Source: Polyangiaceae bacterium (GTDB lineage Bacteria; Myxococcota_A; Polyangia; Polyangiales; Polyangiaceae). From it: a stretch of 64,000 nucleotides of DNA. Positions 3,574 through 40,200 of this stretch are shown here, piece by piece. Position 1 is the stretch's first letter. Every line of letters starts with the position of its first letter. The translations under genes were made by a program, and so were the position numbers. The stretch covers positions 1,752-65,751 of the forward strand of contig JBDHVE010000030.1 in assembly GCA_039809485.1 (NCBI GenBank). Direction: 5' to 3'. The notes beneath the pieces are model-generated. The model was given only the letters and a program-made list of their open reading frames with translations. It had not been told where the DNA came from and did no database searches.

Positions 3574-5186
3574 GCGACAGCATCCCGCCGGATTCGCTCG
3601 AGCCCGAGTCGATCGAGATCGATCCTGCCGGCCTCCGCGGCGCGCGGCGTCTGCTCGCCGTCGGCGGCGGACGCGGTGGCGTCGGCAAGAGCCTCGTCGC
3701 GCAGAACCTCGCCGTCTACCTCGCCCAGCTCGGCAAGACGGTCACGCTCGTCGACTGCGACCCGACCGGCGCGAACCTCCACACCCAGTTCGGCCTGTCC
3801 GCCCTCGCGCGCTCGATCGACGGCAACAGCGAGGACCTCTCGAAGCTCACGGTCACGACGAGCGTGCCAGGGCTGTCGATCCTCCCCGCGCCGCACGACG
3901 CGCTCGAAGCGCCGCTCCAGCTCCGCGCCGGCAGGAAGACGCGGTGGCTCTCGCGTCTCCGCGCGATCCCCGCCGACTACCTCGTCGTCGACGTCGGGCC
4001 CGGTCACTCGAGCCTCGCGGTCGATCTGATGCTCGCAGCGGACATCGGCATCTGCGTCACCGTCCCGGAGCCGCCCGCGATCGAGGCGACGTACCGCTTC
4101 GTGCGCGCGGCGTTCCGCCGCCGACTCCGGCGGGCGCTCGTGAAGGATCGCTTCCGGCTCGGCCTCGTCGAACGCGCCGCGAAGGAGATCGGCCGTCTCC
4201 CCTCGCCGCTCGAGCTCGTGAAGGTCCTCTGGAAGACGGACCGCTCGCTCGCCGAGCTCGCATGGGCCGAAGCCCATCGCACGCACTTCTACCTCGCGGT
4301 GAACCAGACGCGCGTGCGGACGGATCTCGAGCTCGCCGCGACGATGAGCGCGCTCTGCCGCCGCCACTACGGGATCGCGCTCGACGAGCTCGGGTGGGTC
4401 GAGCACGACGACACGGTGTGGCTCTCGGTGCGTCGCCGCCGTCCGCTCCTCGTCGACAGCCCGACGTCGAAGGCGGCGCGCAATCTCGAACGGCTCGCCC
4501 GGCGCGTCGTCGCCCTCACCGCCGCGAAGCAGGAGCGGCACGAGCCGGCGCCGCCCCTCGCGCTCCCGAGTGGGCTCGAGAACGCGCTCGCGCCGGGGCT
4601 CGCGCTCGATCAGCCCGATCTCTACGCCGTGCTCGGCGTCGGTCGCTCGTCGAACGACGAGGAGATCCGCCGCGCGTACAAGCGTCAGAAAGAGGTCTAC
4701 GCGACGGGCGGCCTCGTGACGACGTCCCTCCTCGACGACGCCGAGCTCGCCGCCGCGCAAGCGCGGATCGACGAAGCGCACGACACGCTCCTCGATCCGG
4801 TGCGCCGACGCGCCTACGACCTCTCGACCTTCCCGGAGCCCGAGACGCCGGCGCAGTCGGCGAGCATCGCGCGGCCCGCGCTCGCCGCCGAGCAGCTCCT
4901 CCTCCAGAGCGAGCTCGCACGGGAGATCGGCCCCGACACCGAGTTCTCCGGCTCGCTCCTCCGGAAGGTGCGCGAGTCGCAGGGGATCGAGCTCGCGGAG
5001 ATCAGCTCGCGCACGAAGATCTCGAAAGCGCACCTCGCCGCGCTCGAAGAGGAGTCGTACGGCGACCTGCCCGCGATGGTCTACGTCCGCGGCTTCGTCA
5101 GCGAGCTCGCGAAGTACCTGCGGCTCGATCCCGCCCAGGTCCAGCGCACGTACCTGCGACGCATGCGCGAGAAGACTCCGACGTGA
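3570..5186 (+). CDS. MinD/FlhG-type P-loop ATPase fused to a J-like domain and a RodZ-type HTH
   Basis: GGGRGGVGKS, LVDCD, LVVDVGPG; DLYAVLGV...EIRRAY...LLDPVRRRAYD (J-like); LLRKVRESQGIELAEISSRTKIS...YVRGFVSELAKYL (HTH_25-like). Confidence 0.85.
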   Translation: MSDSIPPDSLEPESIEIDPAGLRGARRLLAVGGGRGGVGKSLVAQNLAVYLAQLGKTVTLVDCDPTGANLHTQFGLSALARSIDGNSEDLSKLTVTTSVPGLSILPAPHDALEAPLQLRAGRKTRWLSRLRAIPADYLVVDVGPGHSSLAVDLMLAADIGICVTVPEPPAIEATYRFVRAAFRRRLRRALVKDRFRLGLVERAAKEIGRLPSPLELVKVLWKTDRSLAELAWAEAHRTHFYLAVNQTRVRTDLELAATMSALCRRHYGIALDELGWVEHDDTVWLSVRRRRPLLVDSPTSKAARNLERLARRVVALTAAKQERHEPAPPLALPSGLENALAPGLALDQPDLYAVLGVGRSSNDEEIRRAYKRQKEVYATGGLVTTSLLDDAELAAAQARIDEAHDTLLDPVRRRAYDLSTFPEPETPAQSASIARPALAAEQLLLQSELAREIGPDTEFSGSLLRKVRESQGIELAEISSRTKISKAHLAALEEESYGDLPAMVYVRGFVSELAKYLRLDPAQVQRTYLRRMREKTPT

Positions 5187-6694
5187 ACGGCAGCGCCGCG
5201 CGAGCGACCGACCCCGGAGACGAGGCGACCGCCGAGACGCGCGCCCAGGGCGGCGCCGCGGCTCGTCTCGACGCGCTCGCCTGCGTCGTGCTCTTCGTCG
5301 TCGCGTGGGTGCCGCGCATGCTCGCGGTGCGGGCGTGGGCGGCCGAGCCCGTGTGGGACGGCCACTACTACGACTTCGGCGCGCACCGGATCGCGGCGGG
5401 GCTCGGATACTCGGACGATCTCGTCGTCGGCGCGACGAAGGTCTGGCATCCGTGGTGCCACTACCCGGTCGGTTACAGCGGCTTCCTCGCCCTCGCCTAT
5501 CGGCTCTTCGGCGAGAGCCCGCACGTCGCGAACCTCGCGAACGTCGCCGTCGGCTCGCTCCTCGCGGTGATGACCTTCCTCCTCGCGCGCGAGGCGCTCC
5601 CGCGGTCGCGAGCGGTCCTCGCCGGCGCGCTCGTCGCGCTCCATCCGGGCCTCGTCCTCTACGGAGCGCTGGTGATGAGCGAGCCGCTCGCGGCGCTCCT
5701 CGTCCTCGTCGCGTTCTGGATCGCGCTCCGCGCGACGCGGGCGGAGCGGCCGTGGCTCGCGATGTCGACCGCCGGGCTCGTCCTCGGCCTCGGCGTCCTC
5801 GTGCGACCGCAAGCGCTCCTCTGCGCGCCGTTCCTCGCGCTCGCATTCCCGGCCGCGCGCCTCCGTGACCGCCTCCTCGCCGCCGTGCTCGCCTGCGCCG
5901 CGACGCTCGTTCCCGTGCTGCCGTGGACCGCGCGCAACTGCAAGGTGATGGACGCCTGTGCGCTCGTCAGCACGAACGCGGGGTGGAACCTCGCGATCGG
6001 CGCGTTCCCGCGCGCGACGGGCCGCTTCGAGACGCTCCGCTCGAGCGACGGGTGTCGCGAGGTGACCGGCCAGGTCCAGCAGGACCGCTGCTGGATGCAG
6101 TACGGGCTCGTGCACATCCGGCAGGATCCGTGGAGGTGGCTCTCGCTCGTGCCGGCGAAGCTCTCGTTCACGTTCGACCACGAGTCGTTCCCGGTCGAGT
6201 ACCTGCGCGAAGCGCGTCCCGCGGCGTGGCCGGAGGACAAGCGAAGCGGCGCGCGGACGGTGCTGACCACGTTCCATCGCCTCCTCTGCGTGGTGTCGCC
6301 GCTCGCGTTCGTCGCGTTCCTCGTCCCGCGACGTCGCGCCCGCGAGCCGCGCGCGGACGGGCGGGCGCGCGTCGTGCAGACGGCCCTCCTCGGCTCCGTC
6401 GCGCTCGCGGCCGTCGTCGGGCTCTCGGCGAGCAGCCCGGTCGTGTGGCCGCTCGTGCTCCTCACCTGCGTGCTCGCCGTGGTGCCGCTCCCCGGAAGGC
6501 CGCCGGTGCCGCCGGCGATCGGCCTCGGCGTCGTGCTCCTCGCGTCGACGGTCGTCGCACACGCGGTCTTCTTCGGCGAGGACCGCTACCACGTCGTCGT
6601 GATCCCGGTCCTCGCGCTGCTCGCCGCGTCGGCGCTCCGTAGCCCGGAAACACGCGCGGCGCGGTCACCGTCAGGTGCACGCGCCGCGGGCTGA
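5183..6694 (+). CDS. Multi-pass membrane glycosyltransferase (GT-C, PMT/ArnT-like)
   Basis: Many TM segments; WDGHYYD, YPVGYSGFLA, LVMSEPL, LVRPQALL, PWTARN and FFGEDRYH motifs typical of GT-C fold enzymes. Confidence 0.75.
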   Translation: MNGSAARATDPGDEATAETRAQGGAAARLDALACVVLFVVAWVPRMLAVRAWAAEPVWDGHYYDFGAHRIAAGLGYSDDLVVGATKVWHPWCHYPVGYSGFLALAYRLFGESPHVANLANVAVGSLLAVMTFLLAREALPRSRAVLAGALVALHPGLVLYGALVMSEPLAALLVLVAFWIALRATRAERPWLAMSTAGLVLGLGVLVRPQALLCAPFLALAFPAARLRDRLLAAVLACAATLVPVLPWTARNCKVMDACALVSTNAGWNLAIGAFPRATGRFETLRSSDGCREVTGQVQQDRCWMQYGLVHIRQDPWRWLSLVPAKLSFTFDHESFPVEYLREARPAAWPEDKRSGARTVLTTFHRLLCVVSPLAFVAFLVPRRRAREPRADGRARVVQTALLGSVALAAVVGLSASSPVVWPLVLLTCVLAVVPLPGRPPVPPAIGLGVVLLASTVVAHAVFFGEDRYHVVVIPVLALLAASALRSPETRAARSPSGARAAG

Positions 6695-6861
6695 AGCTCA
6701 AGCTATCTGGCGGGGGTTCTACCGCGAGCTGAGCCGTATGGACAAGAAAAAGGGAACGCGTGCCAGGCTGGGCCACGGGTGATCGCCGGGTCCGGGCGAT
6801 CTCCACCGCAGGCCCCGAAGTACCCGCCGGAATCCGGCCTATGCCCGCGTATTCGGCACAC

Positions 6862-6877
6862 TGGCGCGAGCTGTGCT
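6862..6877 (+). promoter_or_regulatory. Candidate sigma54 promoter upstream of the DUF2330 gene
   Basis: TGGCGCG-AGCT-GTGCT has GG-N10-GC spacing about 40 nt before the ATG; chance matches are common at this GC. Confidence 0.3.
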
Positions 6878-6918
6878 GTAGTGCGTCGGGTCGAGCCACG
6901 GGCACGGAGGTCTTTCTC

Positions 6919-8316
6919 ATGCGACGAGCACTTCTCATCAGCGCGATGCTCTTCTCCGGCGTCGCCGCGACGACGGCCTGGGAGTCGGAGGCCGAGGCCT
7001 GCGGCGGGTGCTTCGCCCCGCCCGAGACGCCGACGGTGGTGACCGATCACCGGATGATCCTCACCGTCGCGAAGGACCAGACGACGCTCTACGACCAGAT
7101 CCGCTACCAGGGCGACCCGGCGTCGTTCGCGTGGGTGCTGCCGATCGCGGGCACGGTCGACATCGGTCTCAGCTCGGACGCGCTCTTCAACACGCTCGAC
7201 CAGCAGACGCAGACCCAGATCCTCCCGCCGCCGCGGAACTGCCCGCCGCGCCCGGACGACTGCGACGACCAGAGCAGGTTCAACGCGCCGAGCGCGGCGG
7301 GCGGCGCCGAGGATGCGAGCGGCGTCGACGTCCTCAAGCGCGAGGTCGTCGGTCCGTACGAGACCGTGCAGCTCCGCTCCACGGACCCGCAGGCGCTCGA
7401 CGCCTGGCTCGCGAAGAACGGCTTCACCGTCCCGGACGCCGTGAAGCCCGTGATCGCGACCTACGTCGCCGAGAAGTACGATTTTCTCGCGCTGAAGCTC
7501 GTGCCCGGCAAGGGCGTCAACGACATGCGCCCCGTGCGCGTGACGACCCCGGGCGCGACCGCGGTGCTCCCGCTCCGGATGGTCGCCGCCGGCGCCGGCG
7601 CGAACGTGGGCATCACGCTCTTCGTGGTGAGCGAGGGACGCTACGAGCCGCAGAACTTCCCGACGTTCTCGATCCCCACGGACGAGATCCTGTGGAGCTG
7701 GGCTCAGAACAAGAGCAACTACATCGACGTCCGCGCGCAGAAGAACGCCGCGGGCGGCGGGCGCGCGTGGGAGCTCGAGAGCTCGGACGCCGTCTACACG
7801 AACAACGTCCGAGCGGGCGTCCAGGGCGCGACGTATCCGCGCTACCTTCCCGACGGCGGGACGACGCCTCCCCCGGGCGGCTACACGCCGATCGTCGACG
7901 GGCAGGGCACGCTCGTCGCGACCGCCGAGCAGGCGCGCGACCAGGACCTCGCCGTCCTCTTCCACGGCGTTCCGTATCAGCAGGCGCGCGTCACGCGCCT
8001 CCGCGCCGACCTCGCCTACCAGGCGCTGGACGCCGATCTCGTGCTGACCGCGTCCCTGGACCAATCGACGTTCTCGCGCGTCCGCCAGCTCACGCGCGAA
8101 GCCGATCAGCCGCTCTGCCCGGTGTGGGTCGGCTGCTCGAGCGCCGGACAGGCGCCGCGCGACGAAGCGATCGCGCGCAGCACGCCGGGCGGCAGCGGCT
8201 TCGGCTCGTCGTGCGCGACGACGCCGGCGCGCGGCGGCAACGCATGGCTCGCGGCCGGCGCCGGCTTCGTCACCCTCGCGCTCGCGAACGCGTTCCGCCG
8301 TCGCCGCGCGCGCTGA
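6919..8316 (+). CDS. DUF2330-family exported protein with MYXO-CTERM-like tail
   Basis: GGAGG RBS, signal peptide, ACGGCF...DQIRYQGDPASFAWVLP, VGPYETVQL, LPLRMVAAG; C-terminal SSCAT + TM + RRRRAR. Confidence 0.8.
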   Translation: MRRALLISAMLFSGVAATTAWESEAEACGGCFAPPETPTVVTDHRMILTVAKDQTTLYDQIRYQGDPASFAWVLPIAGTVDIGLSSDALFNTLDQQTQTQILPPPRNCPPRPDDCDDQSRFNAPSAAGGAEDASGVDVLKREVVGPYETVQLRSTDPQALDAWLAKNGFTVPDAVKPVIATYVAEKYDFLALKLVPGKGVNDMRPVRVTTPGATAVLPLRMVAAGAGANVGITLFVVSEGRYEPQNFPTFSIPTDEILWSWAQNKSNYIDVRAQKNAAGGGRAWELESSDAVYTNNVRAGVQGATYPRYLPDGGTTPPPGGYTPIVDGQGTLVATAEQARDQDLAVLFHGVPYQQARVTRLRADLAYQALDADLVLTASLDQSTFSRVRQLTREADQPLCPVWVGCSSAGQAPRDEAIARSTPGGSGFGSSCATTPARGGNAWLAAGAGFVTLALANAFRRRRAR

Positions 8317-8441
8317 CCGTGATCGCGCTGACAGGGGCGTCGGCGATGCTGATCCTGCCGCCCCGCACGCCGGCGCCGGTGAACACGGGCGGAGCGCGCG
8401 CGCCCGTCGGGCGGGCGCGCATCGTGCTACGAGCGGAGGCG

Positions 8442-8930
8442 ATGCCTTCGATGCGCTTCTACGCCGCTCTCCTCGGCCTCGTGCTCGCGGGCTGTCCGGC
8501 CGAGGAGGAGACCCCCGCGGGCGGCTGCCGCGAGGACGCGGTCCCGGCGGGTTTCGACGCGACGACGCCGACGTCGTTCGCGAAGGACGTGATGCCCGTC
8601 TTCGAGACCTCGTGCGCGTTCTCGTCGTGCCACGGCTCGAACGCCGGCAGCGCGAACGGGATCTACCTCGGGAGCTCCGACCCGGCTGCGACGCGGAAGG
8701 CGCTCCTCGACACGAAGGCCGAGCGCCTCCCTTCGATGCCGCTCGTCACCCCTGGCGATCCGGGCAAGAGCTTCCTCGTCCGCAAGATCGAGGGCACGCA
8801 GTGCGCGCTCGACGCCCAGTGCACGGGCGGAACGTGCGGCCGTAGCATGCCGCAAGGTCAGGACCTCCTCCCCGAAGCAGCGCGGTTCGCGATCCGCCGC
8901 TGGGTCGCGCAGGGCGCGAAAGAAGACTGA
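8442..8930 (+). CDS. Lipoprotein with a single c-type cytochrome-like domain
   Basis: LAGC lipobox; F..DV.P.F..SCAFSSCHG (CX4CH), PGDPGKSFLVRKI, RSMPQG (candidate distal Met), IRRWVAQGA. Confidence 0.7.
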   Translation: MPSMRFYAALLGLVLAGCPAEEETPAGGCREDAVPAGFDATTPTSFAKDVMPVFETSCAFSSCHGSNAGSANGIYLGSSDPAATRKALLDTKAERLPSMPLVTPGDPGKSFLVRKIEGTQCALDAQCTGGTCGRSMPQGQDLLPEAARFAIRRWVAQGAKED

Positions 8931-8956
8931 CCTGCCCGTGGTAAGGTGGCCGGCGC

Positions 8957-9574
8957 ATGATCGGCCGTCTCACGGGCAGAGTCGTCGAGGAACCCGATGG
9001 AGGACTGGTCGTCGACGTGAACGGCGTCGGCTACGAGGTCGTCGTCCCGCTCGGGACGCTCGGCCGCGCGGGTCGCGACGCCGAGGATCGCGTCACGCTC
9101 TTCGTCCACACGCACGTGCGCGAAGACGTCTTCTCGCTCTTCGGTTTCGCGAGCGACGCCGACCGCCTCGCGTTCCGCACGCTCATCGGCGTGAGCAGCG
9201 TCGGACCGAAGACGGCGATCCAGGTCCTCTCCGCCCTCCCCGCTCCGGAGCTCGGCGCCGCGATCGCGCGGAAGGAGCTCGGCAAGCTGACGAGCATTCC
9301 CGGCATCGGGAAGAAGACGGCCGAGCGCCTCCTCCTCGAGCTGAAGGACAAGCTCCCGGTGCTCGAAGCCGCGACGCCGCGGCCCCAGGGCGCTGCGGCG
9401 AAACCGCAGGCGGCGGCTTCCTCGTCGAGCGCCGAGCTGCTCGCGCGCGCGCTCGTCAACATGGGGTACCGGCAGGGCGAGGCCGATCGCGCCGTCGAGC
9501 AGCTGTCGTCACGCCTCGGCGAGGTCCCGCTGCCCGATCTCGTCAAGGAAGCGCTGGCCGTCCTGTCGAAATGA
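8957..9574 (+). CDS. ruvA: Holliday junction branch migration protein RuvA
   Basis: MIGRLTG...VNGVGYEV, HTHVRED..SLFGF, VSSVGPKTA, IPGIGKKTAERLLLELKDK, ALVNMGY. Confidence 0.97.
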   Translation: MIGRLTGRVVEEPDGGLVVDVNGVGYEVVVPLGTLGRAGRDAEDRVTLFVHTHVREDVFSLFGFASDADRLAFRTLIGVSSVGPKTAIQVLSALPAPELGAAIARKELGKLTSIPGIGKKTAERLLLELKDKLPVLEAATPRPQGAAAKPQAAASSSSAELLARALVNMGYRQGEADRAVEQLSSRLGEVPLPDLVKEALAVLSK

Positions 9575-9617
9575 GCGCTAGAACCGCCATGCGCGACGGC
9601 GTCCGAGGGATCACGCG

Positions 9618-10439
9618 ATGAGCAAGAAGAAGAAGAAGCACGAGCAGAAGCGCAGGCAGGAGCGGCGGTTCTATCCGCAGAGCACCTTCAGCCCCTGGCT
9701 CGTGCGCACCTTCGGTGCTCTCGGCGCGGCGACGATGGGCGCCGGCGCGCTCGGGATGTACAAGGAGATGTTCGCGGCGGACGAGAAGCTGAAGGCGATC
9801 CCTTCCTACCTCGTCGCCGGCGGCGCGGTCCTCACCGGCCTCGCGATCTGGCTCGGCACGAGCAGCGATCCGCCGATCCGCGTCGGCGCGCCCGGAATCG
9901 GGATGGACCGCGGCGAGGTCCGCCGGATGCCCTGGTACAACGTCGACGCGATCACGTTCGAGTCGGGTGCGCTGTCGCTCGTCGTCGTGGGCAAGGACGA
10001 CGCGGGCCAGAGCTGGACGCTGAAGGTGCCCGTCAAGGCGCAGCCCGAGGCGGTCGCGTGGATCGTCGACGAAGCGCAGCGGCGGATCCCGAAGAAGGTC
10101 GACATCTCGGACGAGATGCTCGCGAAGCTCCCGCGCGCCGAGGAGCACGCCGGCACGATCATCGATCTCGAGCCGCTCCAGGTCGTCGGCAAGCGCTGCG
10201 CGGCCTCGGGCAAGACGATCTCCTACGAGCCCGACGCGCGCATCTGCGAGCGCTGCGAGCGCGTGTACTTCAAGCGGTCGGTGCCGAAGAAGTGCAAGTG
10301 CGGCGCCGACCTCGCGCACCTCCGCGACAGCAAGGGCCAGGACGAGACGGAAGAGGAGCCCGCCGAGACGGACGAGGCGAGCGACGTGGCCGAGACCGGC
10401 GCGCCCGACTCCGAGCCCACGAAGACGGCGGAGGTCTGA
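9618..10439 (+). CDS. Hypothetical membrane protein with C-terminal Cys cluster (putative Zn finger)
   Basis: Basic N-terminus, two TM helices, CAASG...CERCERVY...CKCG, acidic tail. Confidence 0.75.
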   Translation: MSKKKKKHEQKRRQERRFYPQSTFSPWLVRTFGALGAATMGAGALGMYKEMFAADEKLKAIPSYLVAGGAVLTGLAIWLGTSSDPPIRVGAPGIGMDRGEVRRMPWYNVDAITFESGALSLVVVGKDDAGQSWTLKVPVKAQPEAVAWIVDEAQRRIPKKVDISDEMLAKLPRAEEHAGTIIDLEPLQVVGKRCAASGKTISYEPDARICERCERVYFKRSVPKKCKCGADLAHLRDSKGQDETEEEPAETDEASDVAETGAPDSEPTKTAEV

Positions 10440-10440
10440 G

Positions 10441-10830
10441 ATGGAGAAGAAGCTCCTCGTCCGTGGTGTGGGCGCGAGCCCCGGCGTCGCGACCGGCTGC
10501 ATCGTCTTCCGTTCGGAGGACGCGATCGCGCTCGCCGGTCAGGGCAAGTCCGTCGTCCTCGTCCGGATCGACACGACGCCGGAGGACGTGCCGGGGATGC
10601 AGGTCGCGGCGGGCATCATCACGACGCGCGGCGGCTTGACCGGCGACGCGGCGATCGTCGCGCGTACGCTCGGCAAGCCGTGCATCGCGGGCTGTCCGAC
10701 GATGCATGTGGACTACACCGCGAACACCTGCACGCTCTGGGGTGACTCGACCGAGGAGCAAGCGGACATCGTCCTCGCGAAGGGCGACGTCATCTCGTTC
10801 GACGGCGGCACCGGCGAGATCTGGCGCTGA
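10441..10830 (+). CDS. Stand-alone PEP-utilising enzyme mobile (phosphohistidine) domain, PPDK-like, His replaced by Asp
   Basis: GVGASPGVATGCIVF, VLVRIDTTPEDVPGM, GIITTRGGLTGDAAIVARTLGKPCIAG (canonical GGxTSHAAxVAR), GDVISFDGGTGEI. Confidence 0.88.
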   Translation: MEKKLLVRGVGASPGVATGCIVFRSEDAIALAGQGKSVVLVRIDTTPEDVPGMQVAAGIITTRGGLTGDAAIVARTLGKPCIAGCPTMHVDYTANTCTLWGDSTEEQADIVLAKGDVISFDGGTGEIWR

Positions 10831-10834
10831 CGCG

Positions 10835-11392
10835 CTACTCGTCGCCGCCGTAGCGACGGCTCATCTCGACGAGGATCGCGCGGATCTCGCCGCCGATCCG
10901 CAGCTTGCGATCGAGCGCGCGGAGCTCGGGATCGTTCGCAGCGGCCCTCGCGACGCGTGCCGCGTGCTCGCGGAGCGTCGCGGTCGCGACGGCGGCGAGC
11001 TCGCCCGCGTCGTACCACGTGCCGTGCGCATCGCAGACGTCGACGGTCATCCCGTGGACGACGCGCGCCCGGAGGTCGTCGCCGCAGTCGGGACAGCGAG
11101 CGCTCGCCCCCCGCGGGAGATCCGGCGTCCGTCGCGCTTCGGCGATCCGCGAGAGCTCGACCGGGACCATGCTCGCCTCGGCGAGCATGCGCGCAGCGGC
11201 TTCGTTCGCGAGCCACCCCCCGCCGCAGACGCCGCACGCGTCCAGACGATGCCCTTCACGGCGGGCGGCGAAGAGCGAGTCGCCGCAACGCGGGCAGACG
11301 CGCCGCGAGAGCCAGGTCTGGAGCAGCCAGGGCCGCGCCGGATCGGGGAGCGGCTCGTCGGGATCGCGCTCGCCGGGGACGCGATAGCTCAC
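10835..11392 (-). CDS. Protein with two zf-TFIIB-like zinc ribbons
   Basis: CPRC...DACGVCGGGWL and CPDC...DVCDAHGTWYDAGEL; GTG start overlaps the DGC stop. Confidence 0.8.
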   Translation of the reverse strand: MSYRVPGERDPDEPLPDPARPWLLQTWLSRRVCPRCGDSLFAARREGHRLDACGVCGGGWLANEAAARMLAEASMVPVELSRIAEARRTPDLPRGASARCPDCGDDLRARVVHGMTVDVCDAHGTWYDAGELAAVATATLREHAARVARAAANDPELRALDRKLRIGGEIRAILVEMSRRYGGDE

Positions 11393-12828
11393 GCCGTCTC
11401 GACGCGATTCCGACCGCGGTGCTTCGCGGCGTACATCGCCTTGTCGGCCCGCCCGAGGAGGTCGTCGAGCTGCCACTCGGGGCTCTCCGCGCTGGCGAGG
11501 CCGACCGACGCCGTCGCCTTGTGCTCCTGGCCGGACGGCAGCATGTAGCGAGCGTCCGCGATCGCGCGCCGGACGCGCTCGGCCGCGACGCGTGCACCGG
11601 CCTCCGCGGTCTGCGTGAGCGCGAGGACGAACTCCTCGCCGCCCCAGCGCGCGACGAAGTCGCTCTTCCGAGCGATGCTCGAGAGCGTCCGCGCGACGCC
11701 CTGGAGGACGGCGTCGCCGGCGTCGTGGCCGAGCGTGTCGTTCACCTTCTTGAAGTGATCGACGTCGAGGAGGAGCACGCTGATCGGGAAGAGCTGCTTG
11801 TCGCTCGCTGCGCGTGCCTTGTCGAGGCGCTCGACGAACGCGCGGCGGTTGAGGAGGCCCGTCAGCGTGTCGGTCGACGCGAGGCGGCGCGCCTCCGCGA
11901 CCAGGGCGGCCATCCGGAGCGGACCGCCCAGCTCGTTGGCGAGGAGCGCGATGAGGCGTCGGTCGTCGTGCGAGGCGCCACGGCGCGCCGGCGCGAGCGC
12001 GATGTGGCCGATGTTCGACGTGCCGAAGCGCACCGGCAGCGAGATCGGCGGCGTCGACCACTCGGCCTCGACCGCTCGGCGGTCGGTCACGAAGTACGCG
12101 TCGCCTTCGTCCGGCTTCCGGCGCTCGGGGGGAGGCGGGACGTCGAGGGCGTCACGCGCTTCGCGCTCGGCGGCGTCACGCAGATCGGGATGGGTGTGGA
12201 TGAAGAGGCGCGTCTTCACCTTCACCTGCGGCGGTGCCGCCGCGTCGGTCGAGAGCGCGAGCCAGCGGTAGCCGGCGACGTCCGACGCGAGCGCGACGAG
12301 GCTCTCGAAGAGCGTCTCGAGCTCCTCGGCCTTCTGCGAGAGGGCGCGGACCTCGCCCGCGATCGTCGAGTCGAAGAGCGACGCGTCGAGCAGCTGCGAG
12401 AGCCGCTCCTGGACGTTGCCGCGCGTGACGACGCCGGGGTTCGTCGCGGGCGGCGGACGCGTCATCGGCGACGACGTGAGATCGCCGAGGACCTCGGTGA
12501 GCCGGTCGATCTCCGTCTTCGTGACGTACGCGGTCGCGCCTGCGTGGCGCGCCCAGAAGCGCGAGCGCCGATCGTCCGACGCGGTGAGGAGGACGACGGG
12601 GACGTGGTGGGTGGCCGGCTCGGCGCGGAGGAGACGGCAGAGCTGGAGGCCCGAGATGCCGGGCATCCAGAGGTCGGTCACGACGGCGTCCGGCGGTCGC
12701 TCGAGCGCCATCTCGGCCGCGTCGGCGGCATGCGCGACCTCGACGACGTCGTGCCCCTTCTCACGAAGGCGGACGCCGAGGAGCGCACGCGCGCTCGCGC
12801 TGTCGTCGACGAGGAGAATCCGCGCCAC
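11389..12828 (-). CDS. Receiver-domain diguanylate cyclase
   Basis: RILLVDD...DLWMPG receiver; DTLTGLLNRR, LLDVDHFKKVNDTLGHDAGD, RKSD I-site, RWGGEEF, ADKAMYAAK. Confidence 0.95.
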   Translation of the reverse strand: MARILLVDDSASARALLGVRLREKGHDVVEVAHAADAAEMALERPPDAVVTDLWMPGISGLQLCRLLRAEPATHHVPVVLLTASDDRRSRFWARHAGATAYVTKTEIDRLTEVLGDLTSSPMTRPPPATNPGVVTRGNVQERLSQLLDASLFDSTIAGEVRALSQKAEELETLFESLVALASDVAGYRWLALSTDAAAPPQVKVKTRLFIHTHPDLRDAAEREARDALDVPPPPERRKPDEGDAYFVTDRRAVEAEWSTPPISLPVRFGTSNIGHIALAPARRGASHDDRRLIALLANELGGPLRMAALVAEARRLASTDTLTGLLNRRAFVERLDKARAASDKQLFPISVLLLDVDHFKKVNDTLGHDAGDAVLQGVARTLSSIARKSDFVARWGGEEFVLALTQTAEAGARVAAERVRRAIADARYMLPSGQEHKATASVGLASAESPEWQLDDLLGRADKAMYAAKHRGRNRVETA

Positions 12829-27888: not shown

Positions 27889-27988
27889 CAACGGCTTGGG
27901 GGGAAACGCCTACGGCCGAGGGGCCCGCCCGCCCCTCACAGCCCTCAGGGCGAGGGTGGAAGGCCGCGGAAAGGCCCCGATCGCGCGC

Positions 27989-28072: not shown

Positions 28073-30409
28073 ATGCGACATCTCTCTGGCCTCTTCACCA
28101 AGACGCGCGTCACCGCCCTCGTCCTCGTCCTCGGCGCCGCCTTCGGCCCCTCGGCCGTCGTCGCGTGCGGCAGCTCCGAGAAGGAGGAGACGAGCGTCAA
28201 CGTGTCGGCCATCGTCTTCGAGTCGCGCGCGCACACCGTGATCGCCGAGAACGGCGAGGTGTCCGTCAACGTGGCGGGCGGCAACGGGCAGGTCCTCGAC
28301 TACACGCGCTACGTCCCCGGCGCGAAGCTCCGCGTGCTCTCGCCGCCGCGTCCGGACGGCGCGGTCCGGAACCTGATCGAGGCGTTCCCGCAGGCCGACC
28401 TGAACGGCTTCGACGTCTCGTTCGACGCGAAGCAGGTCGTCTTCTCGATGAAACGCGACCCGAACGATCGCTACCACATCTACACGGTGCAGCTCGACAC
28501 GGGCGAGATCCACCAGAAGACGGGCGGCGATCAGAACGACATCACGCCGATCTACCTCCCCGGCGGCCGGATCGCCTTCGCGACGGACCAGATGTACACG
28601 CCGATGGGCACGCGCGCCGACGAGTACAACCACTCGCGTCAGGTCACGCAGCTCGCGACGATCAGCATCGACGGCGGTGACGCCGACCGCCGCCTCGCGT
28701 CGCAGAACCTCTCGCACTCCGTCTCGCTCTTCTCGCGCCACAACGGGAAGATCGGCTACTCGCGCTGGGAGCACCTCGGCGGCGTCAACGACGTGAAGCT
28801 GTTCGAGGCCGCGCCGGACGGCGCGCAGATGACGGCGATCGCGGGCCAGCACGGCAAGCCGTCGAACTCGCTCGTCAACGTGCGCGAGCTCGAGCCGAAC
28901 GTCTTCATCGGGATCGCGACGAACCGCTCGCGCACGATCCACGCGGGCGCGCTCGTGAAGATCGACGCGCGCAACCATGCCGACCCGATCTGCATGGACG
29001 CCAAGATCCTCGACAAGGCGGGGCACGCCTGCCTCGACGAGGAGAACGTCCAGTACGAGCTCCTCACGCCCGAGGTCCCGACCGGCGCGGGCCCCTCGCC
29101 CGTCGGCCGCTACCGGACGCCGAGCGCTCTCCCGGACGGCCGCCTCCTCGTCTCGTGGGCCGACGGCGCGGTGAACGACCTCGCCGAGCAGTCGCTCACG
29201 CCGCCGAACTTCGGCATCTACATGTTCGACCCGGCGACGAAGAAGAACCAGCTGATCTTCGACGACCGTGACATGTGGGATCTGAACGCGATGGCCGTCG
29301 CGCCGCGTCCCGAGCCGCCGGTGATCGGCGCGCTCACGGCGCGGGCGCCCGATCCCGGTACGCCGGTCCGGATCGGCTCCGTCGACATCACGCGCACGAG
29401 CCTCACCGATCGCGTGAGCGGCGGCATGTTCGGCGACGGCGTTCCGCTGAACGAGGCGCTCAAGGCGGCGGTGAAGGTCCGCGTCATCGAGGGCTTCTCG
29501 AGCGAGGCCGCGAAGGGCGTCACGATGTTCGGCCTCACGATGGACGAAGGCGCCGCGATCCTCGGCGAGGCCGACGTGAACCCGGACGGGAGCTGGCTCG
29601 CGGAGATCCCGCCGTACCTGCCGGTCCACCTCCAGCCGATCGACAAGTTCGGGATGTCGATCCGCAACCAGCGCCTCTGGATCCAGGGCATGCCCGGCGA
29701 GGACCGCCGCTGCATCGGCTGCCACGAGAGCCGCACGCAGTCGGTCGCGGCGCGCGCCGGAAACCCCACCGTCGCCGAGCAGCGTCAGGCGCAGCAGTTC
29801 CTCGCGCCGGTCTCCGACCGCGCGGAGATCTCGTGGAGCCTCGACCGCACGAAGTACCCCGACGCGAAGCCGAAGGCGGTCGTCCAGGACATCCTCAACG
29901 CGAAGTGCGCGTCGTGTCACTCGGGCGGCGCGAACGACCCCTTCGCCGGCAAGACGTACAGCGTCACGCAGACGACGCCGGGGACCGGCACGACGCAGCA
30001 GTACACGATCCCGTACCTCGACCTCAGCGAGAAGCCGATCACCGTCGTCTACGACCGCATGGTCGCGACCTATCCGTCCTCCTACGTCTCGCTCTTCTTC
30101 CCCGCCACGCTCGAGATGGGGATGGGGATGGGCGCGGCACCGGTCGGTGAGGTCCCGCCGAAGTGGGCGATCGTGAACGACGCGCGCAACTCGGCGCTGA
30201 TCAAGAAGCTGAACGTGAAGGCGCCGGACGGCTCGTTCGCCTACGGCAACCCGGCGATGCACCCCGAGGACAAGGGCGTCACCCTCACCGACGAAGAGCG
30301 CCTGCAGCTCGTCCGCGCGATCGACATCGGAGGCCAGTTCTACACGCGACAGAACACCGGCTTCGTCCCCTTCAACGACACCCGCTACGCCGGGCAGGCG
30401 TACCCCTGA
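28073..30409 (+). CDS. Hydrazine synthase alpha-like lipoprotein (PD40/TolB propeller + HZS-alpha middle domain + C-terminal c-heme domain)
   Basis: VVAC lipobox; DVSFDAKQVVFSMK, DITPIYLPGGRIAF propeller repeats; VNPDGSWLAEIP...LQPIDKFG...PGEDRRCIGCHE; CASCH. Confidence 0.82.
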   Translation: MRHLSGLFTKTRVTALVLVLGAAFGPSAVVACGSSEKEETSVNVSAIVFESRAHTVIAENGEVSVNVAGGNGQVLDYTRYVPGAKLRVLSPPRPDGAVRNLIEAFPQADLNGFDVSFDAKQVVFSMKRDPNDRYHIYTVQLDTGEIHQKTGGDQNDITPIYLPGGRIAFATDQMYTPMGTRADEYNHSRQVTQLATISIDGGDADRRLASQNLSHSVSLFSRHNGKIGYSRWEHLGGVNDVKLFEAAPDGAQMTAIAGQHGKPSNSLVNVRELEPNVFIGIATNRSRTIHAGALVKIDARNHADPICMDAKILDKAGHACLDEENVQYELLTPEVPTGAGPSPVGRYRTPSALPDGRLLVSWADGAVNDLAEQSLTPPNFGIYMFDPATKKNQLIFDDRDMWDLNAMAVAPRPEPPVIGALTARAPDPGTPVRIGSVDITRTSLTDRVSGGMFGDGVPLNEALKAAVKVRVIEGFSSEAAKGVTMFGLTMDEGAAILGEADVNPDGSWLAEIPPYLPVHLQPIDKFGMSIRNQRLWIQGMPGEDRRCIGCHESRTQSVAARAGNPTVAEQRQAQQFLAPVSDRAEISWSLDRTKYPDAKPKAVVQDILNAKCASCHSGGANDPFAGKTYSVTQTTPGTGTTQQYTIPYLDLSEKPITVVYDRMVATYPSSYVSLFFPATLEMGMGMGAAPVGEVPPKWAIVNDARNSALIKKLNVKAPDGSFAYGNPAMHPEDKGVTLTDEERLQLVRAIDIGGQFYTRQNTGFVPFNDTRYAGQAYP

Positions 30410-30425
30410 GGACGAGGAGAACCCC

Positions 30426-31358
30426 ATGATCTCCAAGACGACCAAGCTCGGCCTCACGGTCTCCACCTTCGCGTCCGTCGCGTTCGCGTGCCTGTCGCTC
30501 TTCACGCCGGCAGCCCACGGCGGCCCGGCGGAGGCGACCGGCGGCGCCGCGCGGATGTACCCGGGCATCGCCCCCGACCAGATCGAGAAGCTCTCCTCCG
30601 GCGACCGCATCAAGACGGTCACCGCGCAGCGCGGATCGATGACGGCGATCTGGGAAGCGCTCGAGGAGGGCGAGAAGGTCGAGTGCCTCGACTGCATCCC
30701 ATCCGTCGAGCCGCTCATGTACGACGCCGATCCGCGGACGCGCGAGATCGCCGCGTGGTGGCTCCGCCGCCGGATCTTCGGCGTGTTCGGCCCGGGCGAG
30801 GTCTACGAGCGCACGATCAAGCGGCTCTCGTCGGACGGGAACCCGAAGGTCCGCGCCTACGCGGCCGAAGCCCTCGGCGAGTTCCTGCTCGCGCCGGGCG
30901 TCGAAGCCGTCGCGCTCGCGGTCGAGAAGGATCCGGAGCCCACCGTCCGCGCGGCGGCGGCGAGCGCGCTCGGTCGTCTCAACGACGACGGTCGCGACGC
31001 GATCACGAAGGCGCTCGGGGACAGCGACCCGCGCGTGAAGCTCGCCGGCCTCTCGTCGGCGACGCGGGTGAACTCGTTCTCCGACGTCTCGGCGGTCGCG
31101 AAGCTCCTCGGCGACGGGGACGCGAAGGTGCGCCGGCGCGCGGCCGAAGCGCTCGGCTCGATGAACGCGAAGGACTCGACGGCAGGCCTGATGGCCCTCG
31201 CGAAGAACGACCCGGACGCGAACGTCCGCAACTCGGCCGTCCACACCCTCGGCATGCTCCGCGACCCCAACGCGCGGCCCGTGCTCGAGGACGTCGCGAA
31301 GACCGACGCCGACTCGCTCGTCCGCGATCAGGCCGCGATCGCGCTCCGCCGACTCTGA
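30426..31358 (+). CDS. Exported HEAT-repeat protein with CxxC
   Basis: Signal peptide; ECLDC; repeated D.dp.VR..AA.ALG units. Confidence 0.88.
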   Translation: MISKTTKLGLTVSTFASVAFACLSLFTPAAHGGPAEATGGAARMYPGIAPDQIEKLSSGDRIKTVTAQRGSMTAIWEALEEGEKVECLDCIPSVEPLMYDADPRTREIAAWWLRRRIFGVFGPGEVYERTIKRLSSDGNPKVRAYAAEALGEFLLAPGVEAVALAVEKDPEPTVRAAAASALGRLNDDGRDAITKALGDSDPRVKLAGLSSATRVNSFSDVSAVAKLLGDGDAKVRRRAAEALGSMNAKDSTAGLMALAKNDPDANVRNSAVHTLGMLRDPNARPVLEDVAKTDADSLVRDQAAIALRRL

Positions 31359-31362
31359 AAGA

Positions 31363-31447
31363 AGGCTCCAGGCTACAGGCTTCAGCAGCGAGAGATTTCG
31401 CCGACCGCAACCGCTCTCTCGTTCCTGAAGCCTGTAGCCTGGAGCCT
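31363..31447. repeat. Intergenic inverted-repeat element built from heptamer repeats
   Basis: Perfect 23-bp IR: AGGCTCCAGGCTACAGGCTTCAG (31363-31385) and its complement (31425-31447); inner CGAGAGA/TCTCTCG pair. Confidence 0.92.
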
Positions 31448-31464
31448 GTGGCGTTTCCGCTACA

Positions 31465-34400
31465 ATGCCGACCGTGCGCTTTCCTTCCGCCATCACCGCG
31501 GCCGTTGCAGCCGGCGCCGTCTTCGTCGCCCTCTCGCCGCTCTCGTGCTCCGAGAAGGAGCCGCAGTCGTCGACGTACTTCGATCGTACGATCAGCCCGA
31601 TCCTGACGACGGGGTGCTCGCGGACGAACACGGGCGCGAGCTGTCACGTCGCGGACGCGAAGGGCAACGCGCTCGGCAACCTCGACACCGCGAGCTACGC
31701 CGGGATCGCGAAGCGGCGCGATCTCCTCGTCGACTACGGCCCGTACGGGCAGCCGGCCCTCCTCCTCAAGAACGTCGATCCGCTCCAGGTCGCGGTCACG
31801 ACGTACGACGGCAAGAAGGTCACCGTCACGACCGACATCAAGCACGCGGGCGGCTCCGTCCTCGACGCGACCGGCACCGCGTACACGACGCTCCGGCGCT
31901 GGCTCCAGAACGGCGCGACCGAGAACAACACCGGCGCCACCGCGAAGCAGCTCGAGAAGCAGGCCTGCAGCACGTTCCTCCCGTCGCGCGAGTTCGATCT
32001 CACGAAGGACCCGCCGCGCGCGGACTTCGCGCTGTTCCGCGACAAGGTGAATCCGCTCCTCACGAGGCCTTCGGAGTCCGGCACCGACAAGAGCTGCGCG
32101 GCCTCGAACTGCCACGGCACGGTGGCGAACTCGCTCTACCTCTCGTGCGGCGACACCCCCGAGCAGCTCCGCTTCAACTACTACGCGTCCCAGGAGTACC
32201 TCGCCGCGACGCCGGAGCAGAGCGAGCTGCTCCGCCGTCCGCTCTCGCCGTCGGCGGGAGGCGCGTACCACGAGGGCGGCGTCGTCTTCGACAGTCCGAG
32301 CGACGACGTCTACCAGGCGCTGAACGAGTGGGCGAAGGCGCACGGCCCGGCGATCGTCCCGGAGAGGGACGCCGGCTTCGACTTCTTCTCGCAGAAGGTG
32401 CAGCCGATCCTCGTCAAGAAGGGCTGCATGATGATGCAGTGCCACTCGGCGACGCTGTTCCACGACTACCGGCTCCGCGGCGGATCGGGCGGGAGCTTCT
32501 CGCTCAGCGCGACGCGGAAGAACTACGAGCTGTCGCTCACGCAGCTGGCGGTCGAGAGCGACGATCCGAGCGCGAGCCGGATCGTGAAGAAGAACCTCTA
32601 CCGCCCGGAGGTGTGCGGCGTCGCCGGGTGTGACAAGCCCTCGGGCATCACGCACCGCGGCGGTCCGCTCTTCGAGGACTTCGGCAACCAGACCGCGAGC
32701 CCGAAGGCGTGCGCGGAGGGGAAGTACGACTACGACAACGGCGATCTCGACAAGATCCCCGCGTACTGCGTCGTCGCCGAATGGCTCCGGCGCGAGCGCG
32801 AGACCCACAAGCTCGCGCCGCTCAGCGCCGTCGTGTACGTGAAGCGCCCGCTCGGCAGCTACAAGCGCGTGCAGGACTTCGACGTCTATTCGCCGGGCGC
32901 CGATCTGCGTCGCGCGGCGGTGACCGTCGCTGCCGACGGCCGGATCACGGCGGGGAACGACACCTCGCTCGCGCAGGGCTGCGGCCTCAGCCCTGCGACC
33001 GCGGACATCCAGCGCCCGCAGGTGTCGTGGGACGGCGCGAAGATCGCGTTCGCCGCGCGCTCGTCGGCGAGCGAGCCGCTCGCCGTCTACGAGATGAACG
33101 CGGACGGCTCCGCGTGCGCGAAGCACCCGGTGATCAACGCGACGCCGCCGACGCAGAACGGCCTCCTCGTCCACAACTTCGACCCGACCTATGCGCCGCC
33201 GGAGAACGGCGTGACGCGCATCGTCTGGGCCTCGACGCGCGGAAACCTTCCGATCGTCCAGACCGACTACCAGGGGCCGCAGCGGCAGCCCGCCGATCCT
33301 TCGAAGCCGAACCCGAACCTCTACGTGCTCGAGGCGGGCGACAAGATCCGGCAGCTCACGTTCCTCCTCAACATGGAGCGACGTCCGAGCTTCATGAACG
33401 ACGGCCGGTTGATCTTTCCGGCCGAGAAGCGCGCGCCGCAGTTCCACCAGGTCGCGCTCCGCCGCATCAACATCGACTCGGGTGACTATCACCCGCTCTA
33501 CGCGCAGCGCAGCTCGATCGGCTACTCGGAGGCCTCCGAGGTCGTCGAGCTCTCGGACAAGAACTTCGCGACCATCTTCCGCGAGCCGAGCACGCCCCAC
33601 GGCGGCGGCGTCCTCGCGATCTTCAATCGGTCGCTCGGCCTCGACTTCAGGAGCACGAATCCGGCGGACTACCTCGTCGACCCCGGCGTCCTCGATCCGG
33701 CGGCGCTCCAGTCCCCCGACCCGCAGTTCTTCCTCCGATCCCTGAAGTTCCCCGATCCGGCTGCGGACGCGCGGCCCGGCAAGCCGACGACGGGCGTCTA
33801 CACGTCGCCGTCGATGCTCCCGAACGATCGCCTGCTCGTCAGCTTCGGCCCCGCGGCGGACGCGGCGGCCTTCGACGGCAACTACGACGTCTGGGTCATG
33901 AGCTCGGTGACCGGCGCGAAGGAGAAGCTCCTCGGCGACGCGGGCTCCGCGGAGGTCGAGGCCGTCGGCGTGTACGGCAAGCTCGTCCGGCCGATCTTCA
34001 AGTCGTCGCTCGACGAGCCGAACGGCCACACCCGCATCACGGACGGCGTCGCGGAAGCGCAGCTCCACGTCGTCGACTTCGGGATCCTCGCGACGCTCCT
34101 CTTCCAGAACACGCCGACGGGTCGGGTCATCGATCCCGACCTCACGTCGGTGGAGCTCTACGAGGACATGCCTCCCCCGCCCGAGATGGACTCGTTCGAG
34201 AAGGGCGGCGCCAACATCGCGACCGACGCGTACGGCCGGGTCTACGTCCGGCGGCGCCTCCTCGGCACGGTGCCGTTCGCGAGCGACGGCTCGGCGAAGT
34301 TCACGGTTCCGGGTGGCGTGCCGCTCGTCATCCACGCGCCCGACACACCGCTCTCGCGCGAGAAGAAGCTTCCGCGCTGGCAGCGTGAGCAGTACGTGTT

Positions 34401-34623
34401 CGCGCCGGGCGAGTACGCGCACCAGTCGTTCAAACGCGAGCTGTTCGGTTCGCTCTGCGGGGCGTGCCACGGGTCGGTCACCGGCAAGCCGGTCGACGCC
34501 GCGCTGATCCCGGACTTCGTCACCCAGGCGTCGTCGACGCTCTCACGTTCGCAGCCGCCGCTCGGCCTCGCGATCCCGCCGGCCCAGCGCACGCAGGTCC
34601 TCGAAGGCGCGCCGAAGGAGTAG
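31465..34623 (+). CDS. Multiheme lipoprotein: three N-terminal c-heme modules + PD40/TolB propeller + HZS-alpha-like middle domain
   Basis: PLSC lipobox; CX8CH, CX4CH, CX4CH each followed by H.GG; PQVSWDGAKIAFAAR, HNFDPTYAP; VPFASDGSAKFTVP...FAPGE...LCGACH. Confidence 0.8.
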   Translation: MPTVRFPSAITAAVAAGAVFVALSPLSCSEKEPQSSTYFDRTISPILTTGCSRTNTGASCHVADAKGNALGNLDTASYAGIAKRRDLLVDYGPYGQPALLLKNVDPLQVAVTTYDGKKVTVTTDIKHAGGSVLDATGTAYTTLRRWLQNGATENNTGATAKQLEKQACSTFLPSREFDLTKDPPRADFALFRDKVNPLLTRPSESGTDKSCAASNCHGTVANSLYLSCGDTPEQLRFNYYASQEYLAATPEQSELLRRPLSPSAGGAYHEGGVVFDSPSDDVYQALNEWAKAHGPAIVPERDAGFDFFSQKVQPILVKKGCMMMQCHSATLFHDYRLRGGSGGSFSLSATRKNYELSLTQLAVESDDPSASRIVKKNLYRPEVCGVAGCDKPSGITHRGGPLFEDFGNQTASPKACAEGKYDYDNGDLDKIPAYCVVAEWLRRERETHKLAPLSAVVYVKRPLGSYKRVQDFDVYSPGADLRRAAVTVAADGRITAGNDTSLAQGCGLSPATADIQRPQVSWDGAKIAFAARSSASEPLAVYEMNADGSACAKHPVINATPPTQNGLLVHNFDPTYAPPENGVTRIVWASTRGNLPIVQTDYQGPQRQPADPSKPNPNLYVLEAGDKIRQLTFLLNMERRPSFMNDGRLIFPAEKRAPQFHQVALRRINIDSGDYHPLYAQRSSIGYSEASEVVELSDKNFATIFREPSTPHGGGVLAIFNRSLGLDFRSTNPADYLVDPGVLDPAALQSPDPQFFLRSLKFPDPAADARPGKPTTGVYTSPSMLPNDRLLVSFGPAADAAAFDGNYDVWVMSSVTGAKEKLLGDAGSAEVEAVGVYGKLVRPIFKSSLDEPNGHTRITDGVAEAQLHVVDFGILATLLFQNTPTGRVIDPDLTSVELYEDMPPPPEMDSFEKGGANIATDAYGRVYVRRRLLGTVPFASDGSAKFTVPGGVPLVIHAPDTPLSREKKLPRWQREQYVFAPGEYAHQSFKRELFGSLCGACHGSVTGKPVDAALIPDFVTQASSTLSRSQPPLGLAIPPAQRTQVLEGAPKE

Positions 34624-39212: not shown

Positions 39213-39351
39213 CCGACCCCACGGTACCAGGCCCAAAGGCGCCGATGGACGGTGAAGTGCCCCATTTCTCGGGTCCGGAGCGGCGGGAAGGGCACCGTTC
39301 TCCTCGGCCCCGGCGCGGGCGTCGGATATCCTGATTCACGAGGTGGATCGA

Positions 39352-40200
39352 ATGAGCCCGAAGCGCATCCCCGCTCTCTGCCTCTCGCTCGCGATGCTCG
39401 CGGCGTGCGCGAGCTCCGAGGAGGAGCAGGTGCTCCCGCCTGTCGTGCTCGGCATGACGGAGACGACGCCGCCGGCCTTCGACGACGGCCAGACGCAGAT
39501 CTACCAGGTGACGAAGGAGGTCTCGCTCCCGATGCGGGCGCCGCTGTCGAGCGAGCGAACGAACGGCGACGTCGATCCCTACCCGCGCGCGCCGTTCCAC
39601 CTCGCACGCGACACGCGCATCACGGTGCGCTTCACGCTGTCGAACCTCGAGGACAAGCAGAACATCGTCGAGCTGCTGTTCGATCCGTGGAACGAGTTCG
39701 TCCGCTACCAGCCGGGCGTGAACGCGAGCGGCGAAGAGGCGCTCCCGAACTTCAGCGGCAACCAGCGCTTCGTGATCCTGCCGCCGCTCGGCCGGGTCGA
39801 AGGCATCCTCACCCCCGACGACATGCTCGAGCTCGCGACCGACCTCGCGACGGCGATGTCGCTCGATCGGCGGCGGCCGGCGGCCGGCGCGACGCCGGGT
39901 GAGGACGATCCGCTCGGCGGCCCGACGCTCTACAACCGCGCGATGAACACGCAGAACCGGTCGACGGTGCAGTTCGATCCGGTGCTCGCGCCGTTCATCC
40001 CCCAGGTCGTCGCCGGCCTGACCGGGTTCGACGTGGGCCTCCGGACGAGCGGCCCGGCCAAGGTAGCGGTCGAGCTCCTGGTGGACGTCGAGGACCTGAA
40101 GGGCGACCGGGTCGTGCCATCGGGCGACAACCTCGAGACGCTCGACCCGCCGGGCGACGTCCTGAGCCCGCCCGCCCCCACCGGGATGATGGCGCAATAA
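39352..40200 (+). CDS. Hypothetical lipoprotein
   Basis: LAAC lipobox; no family recognised. Confidence 0.75.
   Translation: MSPKRIPALCLSLAMLAACASSEEEQVLPPVVLGMTETTPPAFDDGQTQIYQVTKEVSLPMRAPLSSERTNGDVDPYPRAPFHLARDTRITVRFTLSNLEDKQNIVELLFDPWNEFVRYQPGVNASGEEALPNFSGNQRFVILPPLGRVEGILTPDDMLELATDLATAMSLDRRRPAAGATPGEDDPLGGPTLYNRAMNTQNRSTVQFDPVLAPFIPQVVAGLTGFDVGLRTSGPAKVAVELLVDVEDLKGDRVVPSGDNLETLDPPGDVLSPPAPTGMMAQ

Follow-up and report, generated by a model that had tools for sequence, protein, structure and literature searches.

Among described proteins, the alpha subunit of hydrazine synthase (HZS) from Kuenenia stuttgartiensis (5C2V, PF18582, NF052339) is the closest in structure to the protein considered here, P0001, which is encoded in a 64,000-nucleotide stretch of a Polyangiaceae genome (contig JBDHVE010000030.1; the whole stretch is referred to as the window). 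The body of P0001 shares with HZS alpha a beta-propeller and a middle domain that ends in a c-type heme motif. Unlike HZS alpha, P0001 is without the C-terminal heme alpha-II domain, carries ~430 extra N-terminal residues that hold three repeated modules, has no adjoining genes for beta or gamma subunits, and belongs to a myxobacterium of 71% GC rather than to an anammox planctomycete. Homologues of HZS alpha were surveyed in 2025 (PMC12758564): the survey describes two-heme relatives from Planctomycetota and Desulfobacterota, gives no experimentally confirmed function for any homologue and does not mention Myxococcota.

The modules themselves recall cytochromes of other kinds. Acidobacterial cytochromes of the family represented by the protein P0228 share with them the succession F..V.PIF, heme motif and S.LL..PL…GG..H.GG…W as well as an arrangement in tandem triplets, and differ from them in having canonical CXXCH motifs and in standing alone, without a propeller. 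The PSCyt1 and PccH families are monoheme cytochromes of class I type and use Met as the distal ligand. Like the modules, PSCyt1 (PF07635) and PccH (PF22297, 4RLR) combine an N-terminal helix, an F..dI.PIL…C..CHG attachment segment and a C-terminal L..W helix; unlike the modules they have CXXCH, and the modules of P0001 give no score against either model. The CX15CH of MccA/SirA resembles the motifs of P0001 in joining two Cys and a His across a longer loop, and differs in being served by dedicated lyases (PMC6976685). What is new in P0001 is an uncurated domain of cytochrome c type, with a stretched motif and a His as predicted distal ligand, that is fused in triplicate to an HZS-alpha-like body. 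We consider it probable that P0001 is a four-heme, lipid-anchored redox protein, which is the best overall explanation of the features described below.

The N-terminal modules as a repeated domain

The open reading frame of P0001 has the codon signature of a genuine gene, given its GC content at third codon positions (GC3; Table 1), in a window of ~71% GC. Those of its homologues that bear names belong to Labilithrix, Polyangiaceae and Pendulispora (Myxococcota). A regular-expression scan placed one CX8CH and two CX4CH motifs, each followed by an H-x-GG, exactly at the coordinates that the first-pass annotation had given for them, and a sole CXXCH further on. All motif Cys and His residues, together with the three H-x-GG His residues, are invariant in 120 of 120 homologues with 59-81% identity, the set in which residue conservation was judged. 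As that annotation had also pointed out, a scan for CXXCH alone counts one site in P0001 against four candidate sites. Heme counts based on CXXCH drive the annotation of proteins for electron transfer, and here they miss three of the four likely sites across the P0001 family. The same homologues share an invariant Cys28 that closes the signal peptide in a lipobox, which argues that P0001 is an exported lipoprotein; the lipoboxes of its relatives are canonical (LAAC, ASGC, LSAC). Three further invariant Cys pairs, C168/C228, C416/C435 and C506/C551, are probably disulfides.

Direct comparison of the modules by hhalign, with close homologues of P0001 as input, gave moderate values (P from 6e-5 to 6e-3 overall) because the input alignment was of low diversity: the aligned stretch spanned 78 columns for modules 2 and 3 (P 6e-5) and 20 for modules 1 and 2, and hardly any for modules 1 and 3. 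Iteration through diverse relatives was required to recover the homology. A hidden Markov model (HMM) built from module 2 alone detected both N-terminal modules of the two-module relative P0262 and all three CXXCH modules of P0228 (399 aa), the latter over nearly the full HMM with E-values of 1e-11 to 1e-13. Upon iteration, the HMM recruited modules 3 and 1 with significant E-values, so that all three were recovered. The module-2 HMM, the iterated HMM and the internal alignment thus agree with the initial proposal of three homologous, cytochrome-c-type N-terminal repeats, and show that a single domain of ~110-150 aa is present in three genuine copies.

An alignment of 67 diverged module copies (A4), with a mean column identity of 23%, defines what these copies have in common. 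Invariance is limited to the second Cys, the His of the motif and that of H-x-GG; the first Cys, the leading Phe and Gly residues are conserved at 90% or more. The H-x-GG His, put forward at the outset as a likely distal ligand, is therefore the only invariant residue outside the attachment motif; in P0001 it lies 52-70 residues downstream of the motif His. When the N-terminal region was searched exhaustively as a profile, 692 cluster representatives were returned, in which modules 2 and 3 have CX4CH nearly always. At the position of module 1 the loop varies among the representatives, with X6 in 38, X8 in 27, X7 in two and X5 in one.

In a maximum-likelihood tree of 64 modules, those of position 1 and position 3 form mutually separate clades (100/99 and 98/98, respectively), and those of position 2 are looser, with most in one clade at 87/85. 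The separation of the first two argues that the triplication is ancient and predates the radiation of the P0001 family. The acidobacterial modules form a clade of their own (96/93), and the triplication in the P0228 family can thus be regarded as independent.

Module 3 has features of its own. It contains the invariant FHDYRLRGGSGG and, at 32455-32508 (residues 331-348), a module 3-specific invariant stretch, FHDYRLRGGSGGSFS, that includes an extra invariant His333. This residue sits six residues past the motif His of module 3, and it might serve as an alternative ligand or have a function particular to this module.

Candidate heme sites in the modules

The P0228 family, of at least 1892 proteins of ~400 aa that come mostly from Acidobacteria (Vicinamibacterales), connects the modules with recognised cytochromes. 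Several members carry the JGI labels cytochrome c553 or mono/diheme cytochrome c family protein. The module-2-only HMM matches 119 of the 119 listed members, which have three or four modules each, over nearly the full length of the HMM, and every module in these proteins has a CXXCH followed 64-66 residues on by H-x-GG. When five members were scanned against Pfam, all five passed the whole-protein cut-off of Cytochrom_C (22.7-31.9 bits against 21.3), with best stretches that reach profile positions 11-87 of 90; three of the five exceeded the cut-off of Cytochrome_CBB3 and two that of PSCyt1. Among PDB sequences, the module profile had a sole match, in the attachment segment of the monoheme cytochrome PccH (4RLR), at a non-significant E of 0.74. 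The link drawn by the module-2 HMM to CXXCH proteins that pass Pfam cut-offs argues that the modules of P0001 are very probably heme domains, namely class-I-type, bis-His, c-type domains without a Pfam or NCBIfam model. For modules 2 and 3 we are fairly confident of heme binding, and we think it probable for all three modules. Since the module is covered by neither database, a model built from A4 would allow it to be annotated.

A structural model of module 2, predicted with AlphaFold2 on the 67-sequence alignment, is of good quality, with a predicted local distance difference test (pLDDT) score of 88.4 and a predicted template modelling (pTM) score of 0.82. Its helix order is that of class I: an N-terminal helix, the motif, middle helices and a C-terminal helix. 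The H-x-GG His lies between the short helix at residues 254-257 and the C-terminal helix at 281-293. A ligand role for this His is something that we infer, and its invariance would fit a distal axial ligand.

Several observations weigh against heme in the modules, and they lead to the alternative that the Cys/Cys-His/His sets are not heme sites at all, and form disulfides or hold Zn or another metal in structural or binding domains. Neither P0001 nor isolated module 2 gave a match in the module region to the cytochrome models of Pfam and NCBIfam, so that the tie between the modules of P0001 and curated cytochrome c models is transitive only, through CXXCH relatives. In the five scanned P0228-family members, no single stretch was individually significant against Pfam. 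Foldseek with the confident module 2 model retrieved no neighbour from the PDB (best E ~2), solved cytochromes, 5C2V and 4RLR included, and in the full-length model of P0001 pLDDT is low at the motif loops. Heme attachment to P0001 is predicted from sequence; a Cys2His2 set could in principle be a metal-ion site, the formal complement of two Cys and two His being available in each module, and further invariant Cys of P0001 are, as noted above, probably paired in disulfides. We nevertheless regard non-heme modules as rather improbable. The homologous CXXCH modules are recognised as cytochrome c; every copy has a His immediately behind its second Cys, an order that marks c-type attachment and would be awkward for a single Zn; the F...V.P.L helix ahead of the motif is a cytochrome-type context; and CX4CH is a proven heme site elsewhere.

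Motif spacing and cytochrome c maturation

CX4CH is an accepted heme c motif, known from heme 3 of hydrazine dehydrogenase and from cytochromes c3 (PMC6469936, PMC11492766). Across the genome, the pattern F...V.P.L...C(X)nCH occurs ten times with n=2, six times with n=4 and twice with n=8, with zero occurrences for n=3, 5, 6, 7, 9 and 10. The background frequency of the absent spacings is about equal, and X4 and X8 are enriched in the cytochrome-type context (Fisher p = 3e-5). Among maturation factors, System I is represented in the genome by CcmC, CcmE and a fusion of CcmF with CcmH; in the fusion, a single frame of ~1070 aa on contig C91 (locus L001), CcmF continues into a C-terminal part that resembles CcmH (LRCMCGTCP).

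The CX8CH of module 1 raises a question for this machinery. CX6CH, CX7CH and CX8CH are absent from the published list of heme motifs (PMC11492766), and the long-spaced motifs studied to date, such as CX15CH, require dedicated lyases (PMC6976685), as in Wolinella and Shewanella. A search of the genome for a dedicated lyase or System II found no evident lyase of this kind, no ResB and one CcmF only. Module 1 also diverges most among the copies, with 18% identity to module 2 in A4 and an E-value of 7.7e-6 against the module profile, and its region has low pLDDT in the full-length model. On these points, heme might be held by the CX4CH modules 2 and 3 only, with module 1 unmatured, attached through a single thioether or free of heme, and three hemes in total. 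We find this unlikely, as C51, C60, H61 and H127 are invariant in the 120 homologues, and among the representatives two Cys are kept in 68 of 69 and H-x-[GA]-G in 61 of 68, with a loop of 5-8 residues. A varying loop between a kept Cys pair would be expected if both Cys were used and the loop bulged out. If CX6-8CH sites are matured by plain Ccm, the known substrate range of Ccm widens, and such sites would bridge the gap between CX4CH and CX11-17CH.

Two candidates for additional maturation factors were rejected. A 334-aa PF01578 protein on contig C79 is without a WWD motif. The ORF at 39343-40200 in the window, considered as a dedicated lyase, matches CcmH/NrfF weakly, and we regard this match as noise because it scores 13-18 bits and there is no Cys motif.

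Stretched motifs also occur in small lipoproteins of this genome. One of 162 aa at 8442-8930 (+), with a signal peptide ending …LVLAGC, contains FAKDVMPVFETSCAFSSCHG (CX4CH) and a PSCyt1-like tail, …CGRSMPQG…IRRWVAQGA; it matches the module profile at E 4.7e-7, has no Pfam match, and has a close paralogue on contig C66. A lipoprotein on contig C38 has a single H-x-GG module (CGSMDCH…HKGG). Pfam gave zero matches for the small CX4CH lipoproteins of the genome.

The HZS-alpha-like body and its genomic setting

The body of P0001 (residues ~455-1052) is modelled with pLDDT >90 across most of its length. Its best structural match by Foldseek is 5c2v_D, hydrazine synthase alpha (E 1.9e-22, 638 columns), and the family profile matches 5c2v_A in the PDB (E 1e-6). 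P0001 scores 21.9 bits with Pfam HZS_alpha, which is under the cut-off, and 18.2 bits with the NCBIfam equivalog NF052339, for which 800 bits are required. Since the protein ends 50 residues past the middle-domain CXXCH, there is no C-terminal heme alpha-II domain.

The absence of this domain could be taken to mean that the modules are the C-terminal heme alpha-II domain of HZS alpha, relocated to the N-terminus and triplicated in this paralogue, as the first-pass annotation proposed. That annotation also saw the same module at the C-terminus of P0002, the HzsA-like protein encoded upstream. A likeness does exist: the attachment segment of the modules aligns with the C-terminal domains of HZS alpha and P0002, in the latter case over ~21 columns (hhalign P 8e-5), and the module HMM finds, with its first half, the C-terminal domains of the relatives P0219 and P0262 (E ~1e-6). 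It is confined, however, to those ~21 columns, the V.P.L..C..CH segment. The C-terminal domain of P0002 has no H-x-GG and is non-significant against the module HMM (E 0.32), and we rejected its identity with the module beyond the attachment segment. Foldseek gave no match of the module 2 model to 5C2V; the nearest full-length relatives of the modules are the acidobacterial CXXCH cytochromes; the module positions are old, separate clades; and P0001 and P0002 are remote relatives with 23% identity, in the propeller only. Moreover, in P0219, P0240 and P0262 the N-terminal modules coexist with a C-terminal heme domain of HZS type, which in P0262 matches hydrazine_alpha positions 649-794 and bears a CX4CH. 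Relocation and triplication are therefore largely refuted as an origin, and we hold them to be very improbable. With an ancient triplication and both kinds of domain coexisting in relatives, it is more likely that the lineage of the window lost the C-terminal domain than that it moved it.

Together, these features suggest a model of how P0001 may work. In this model, P0001 would be a Sec-exported, lipid-anchored periplasmic redox protein whose first ~430 mature residues comprise three ancient, paralogous, class-I-type cytochrome c domains outside the curated families. Heme c would be attached at each of the stretched motifs (CX8CH, CX4CH and CX4CH), with the motif His as proximal ligand and the H-x-GG His as distal ligand, between the short 'S.LL..PL' helix and the C-terminal helix. 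Classical class I cytochromes have a distal Met at the position that matches this His. The outcome would be three low-spin, bis-His electron-transfer hemes that feed or drain a fourth heme on the CXXCH of the propeller/middle domain, the likely catalytic site of the HZS-alpha-like body. A single System I (CcmC, CcmE and CcmF-CcmH) would mature all four sites, and P0001 would probably act jointly with two co-encoded proteins, the predicted diheme lipoprotein P0002 and the exported HEAT protein. Heme occupancy, bis-His ligation and the direction of electron flow are what we infer for P0001, and our guess for a substrate, by analogy, would be a small nitrogen or oxygen species.

More tentatively, the spacings CX6CH, CX7CH and CX8CH may be genuine two-thioether sites that ordinary System I serves with no dedicated lyase, and the H-x-GG module a widespread, uncurated family of bis-His cytochromes c that, in Polyangia, wires an HZS-alpha-like catalytic heme within a new periplasmic redox enzyme of two HzsA-like lipoproteins and a HEAT scaffold. 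We know of no function for HZS-alpha-like proteins outside anammox bacteria, and the putative four-heme version in myxobacteria, with its conserved partner and HEAT protein, offers an expressible target through which a function for this class of enzymes could be approached.

Table 1 Features of P0001 and its co-encoded neighbours (window coordinates)
Feature	Coordinates	Strand	Details
P0001 gene, HzsA-like lipoprotein, 1052 aa	31465..34623	+	GC3 0.95; 806 homologues at E<=1e-3
P0001 signal peptide, ending at lipobox Cys28 (…ALSPLSC)	31465..31548	+	C28 invariant in 120 homologues
Module 1 (residues ~36-160)	31570..31944	+	CX8CH CSRTNTGASCH, residues 51-61, nt 31615-31647; HAGG, residue 127, nt 31843-31854; beta-hairpin insert; m1 clade 100/99
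Module 2 (residues ~184-298)	32014..32358	+	CX4CH CAASNCH, residues 211-217, nt 32095-32115; HEGG, residue 269, nt 32269-32280
Module 3 (residues ~300-452)	32362..32820	+	CX4CH CMMMQCH, residues 321-327, nt 32425-32445; HRGG, residue 397, nt 32653-32664; Cys-rich insert; m3 clade 98/98
HZS-alpha-like beta-propeller and middle domain	32827..34623	+	Single CXXCH CGACH, residues 998-1002, nt 34456-34470; Foldseek, family profile
Upstream partner P0002, 778-aa HzsA-like lipoprotein	28073..30409	+	Two CXXCH (middle and C-terminal domains); Pfam HZS_alpha E 3.7e-16
Exported HEAT-repeat protein between both HzsA-like genes	30426..31358	+	Pfam HEAT_2 E 3e-38

P0001 is surrounded by genes for the HzsA-like P0002, the HEAT protein, a DUF7079 protein, a protein of unknown kind and a methyltransferase; among them there is no CCP/MauG-like or seven-bladed partner and no beta or gamma subunit gene. 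The three-gene order is kept in Pendulispora rubella, where the P0001 orthologue is 60% identical, and the HEAT gene is retained at the equivalent position in locus L004. The longest ORF of the P0002 gene begins at a TTG at 27896, and the database call of 778 aa starts from the ATG at 28073 (MRHLSG…) and has the lipobox …AVVAC. A long inverted repeat, GGCTCCAGGCTACAGGCTTCAG … CTGAAGCCTGTAGCCTGGAGCC, at 31364-31448 occupies the greater part of the 106 nt that separate P0001 from the HEAT gene, and no T-tract terminator was scored in it.

The genome has a second three-module paralogue, 52% identical to P0001, at C24:49387-52665 (-). It has the same succession of CX8CH, CX4CH, CX4CH and CXXCH with all three H-x-GG, and it adjoins genes for an outer-membrane protein of BamA/TamA type and for a protein with an EAL domain, but none for an HzsA-like or HEAT partner. 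Matches to the P0001 family were found in 60 of 301 sampled Myxococcota genomes, among which the full three-module region is confined to the class to which the window belongs and more distant members match modules 2-3 only; counted as clusters at 50% identity, matches to the three-module region number ~700. None of the sequence words of the P0001 gene was found in the RNA runs, which were tiny and the sole ones. Several metagenome studies of activated sludge, bioreactors and wastewater contain near-identical DNA, and the host of P0001 is a wastewater/soil myxobacterium.

On a farmland metagenome contig (locus L005, genes 4312-11664), P0262 has a DUF1501 protein on one side and, on the other, a protein of 710 aa that matches CCP_MauG weakly, an arrangement that recalls the alpha plus beta-gamma gene pairing of HZS homologues.

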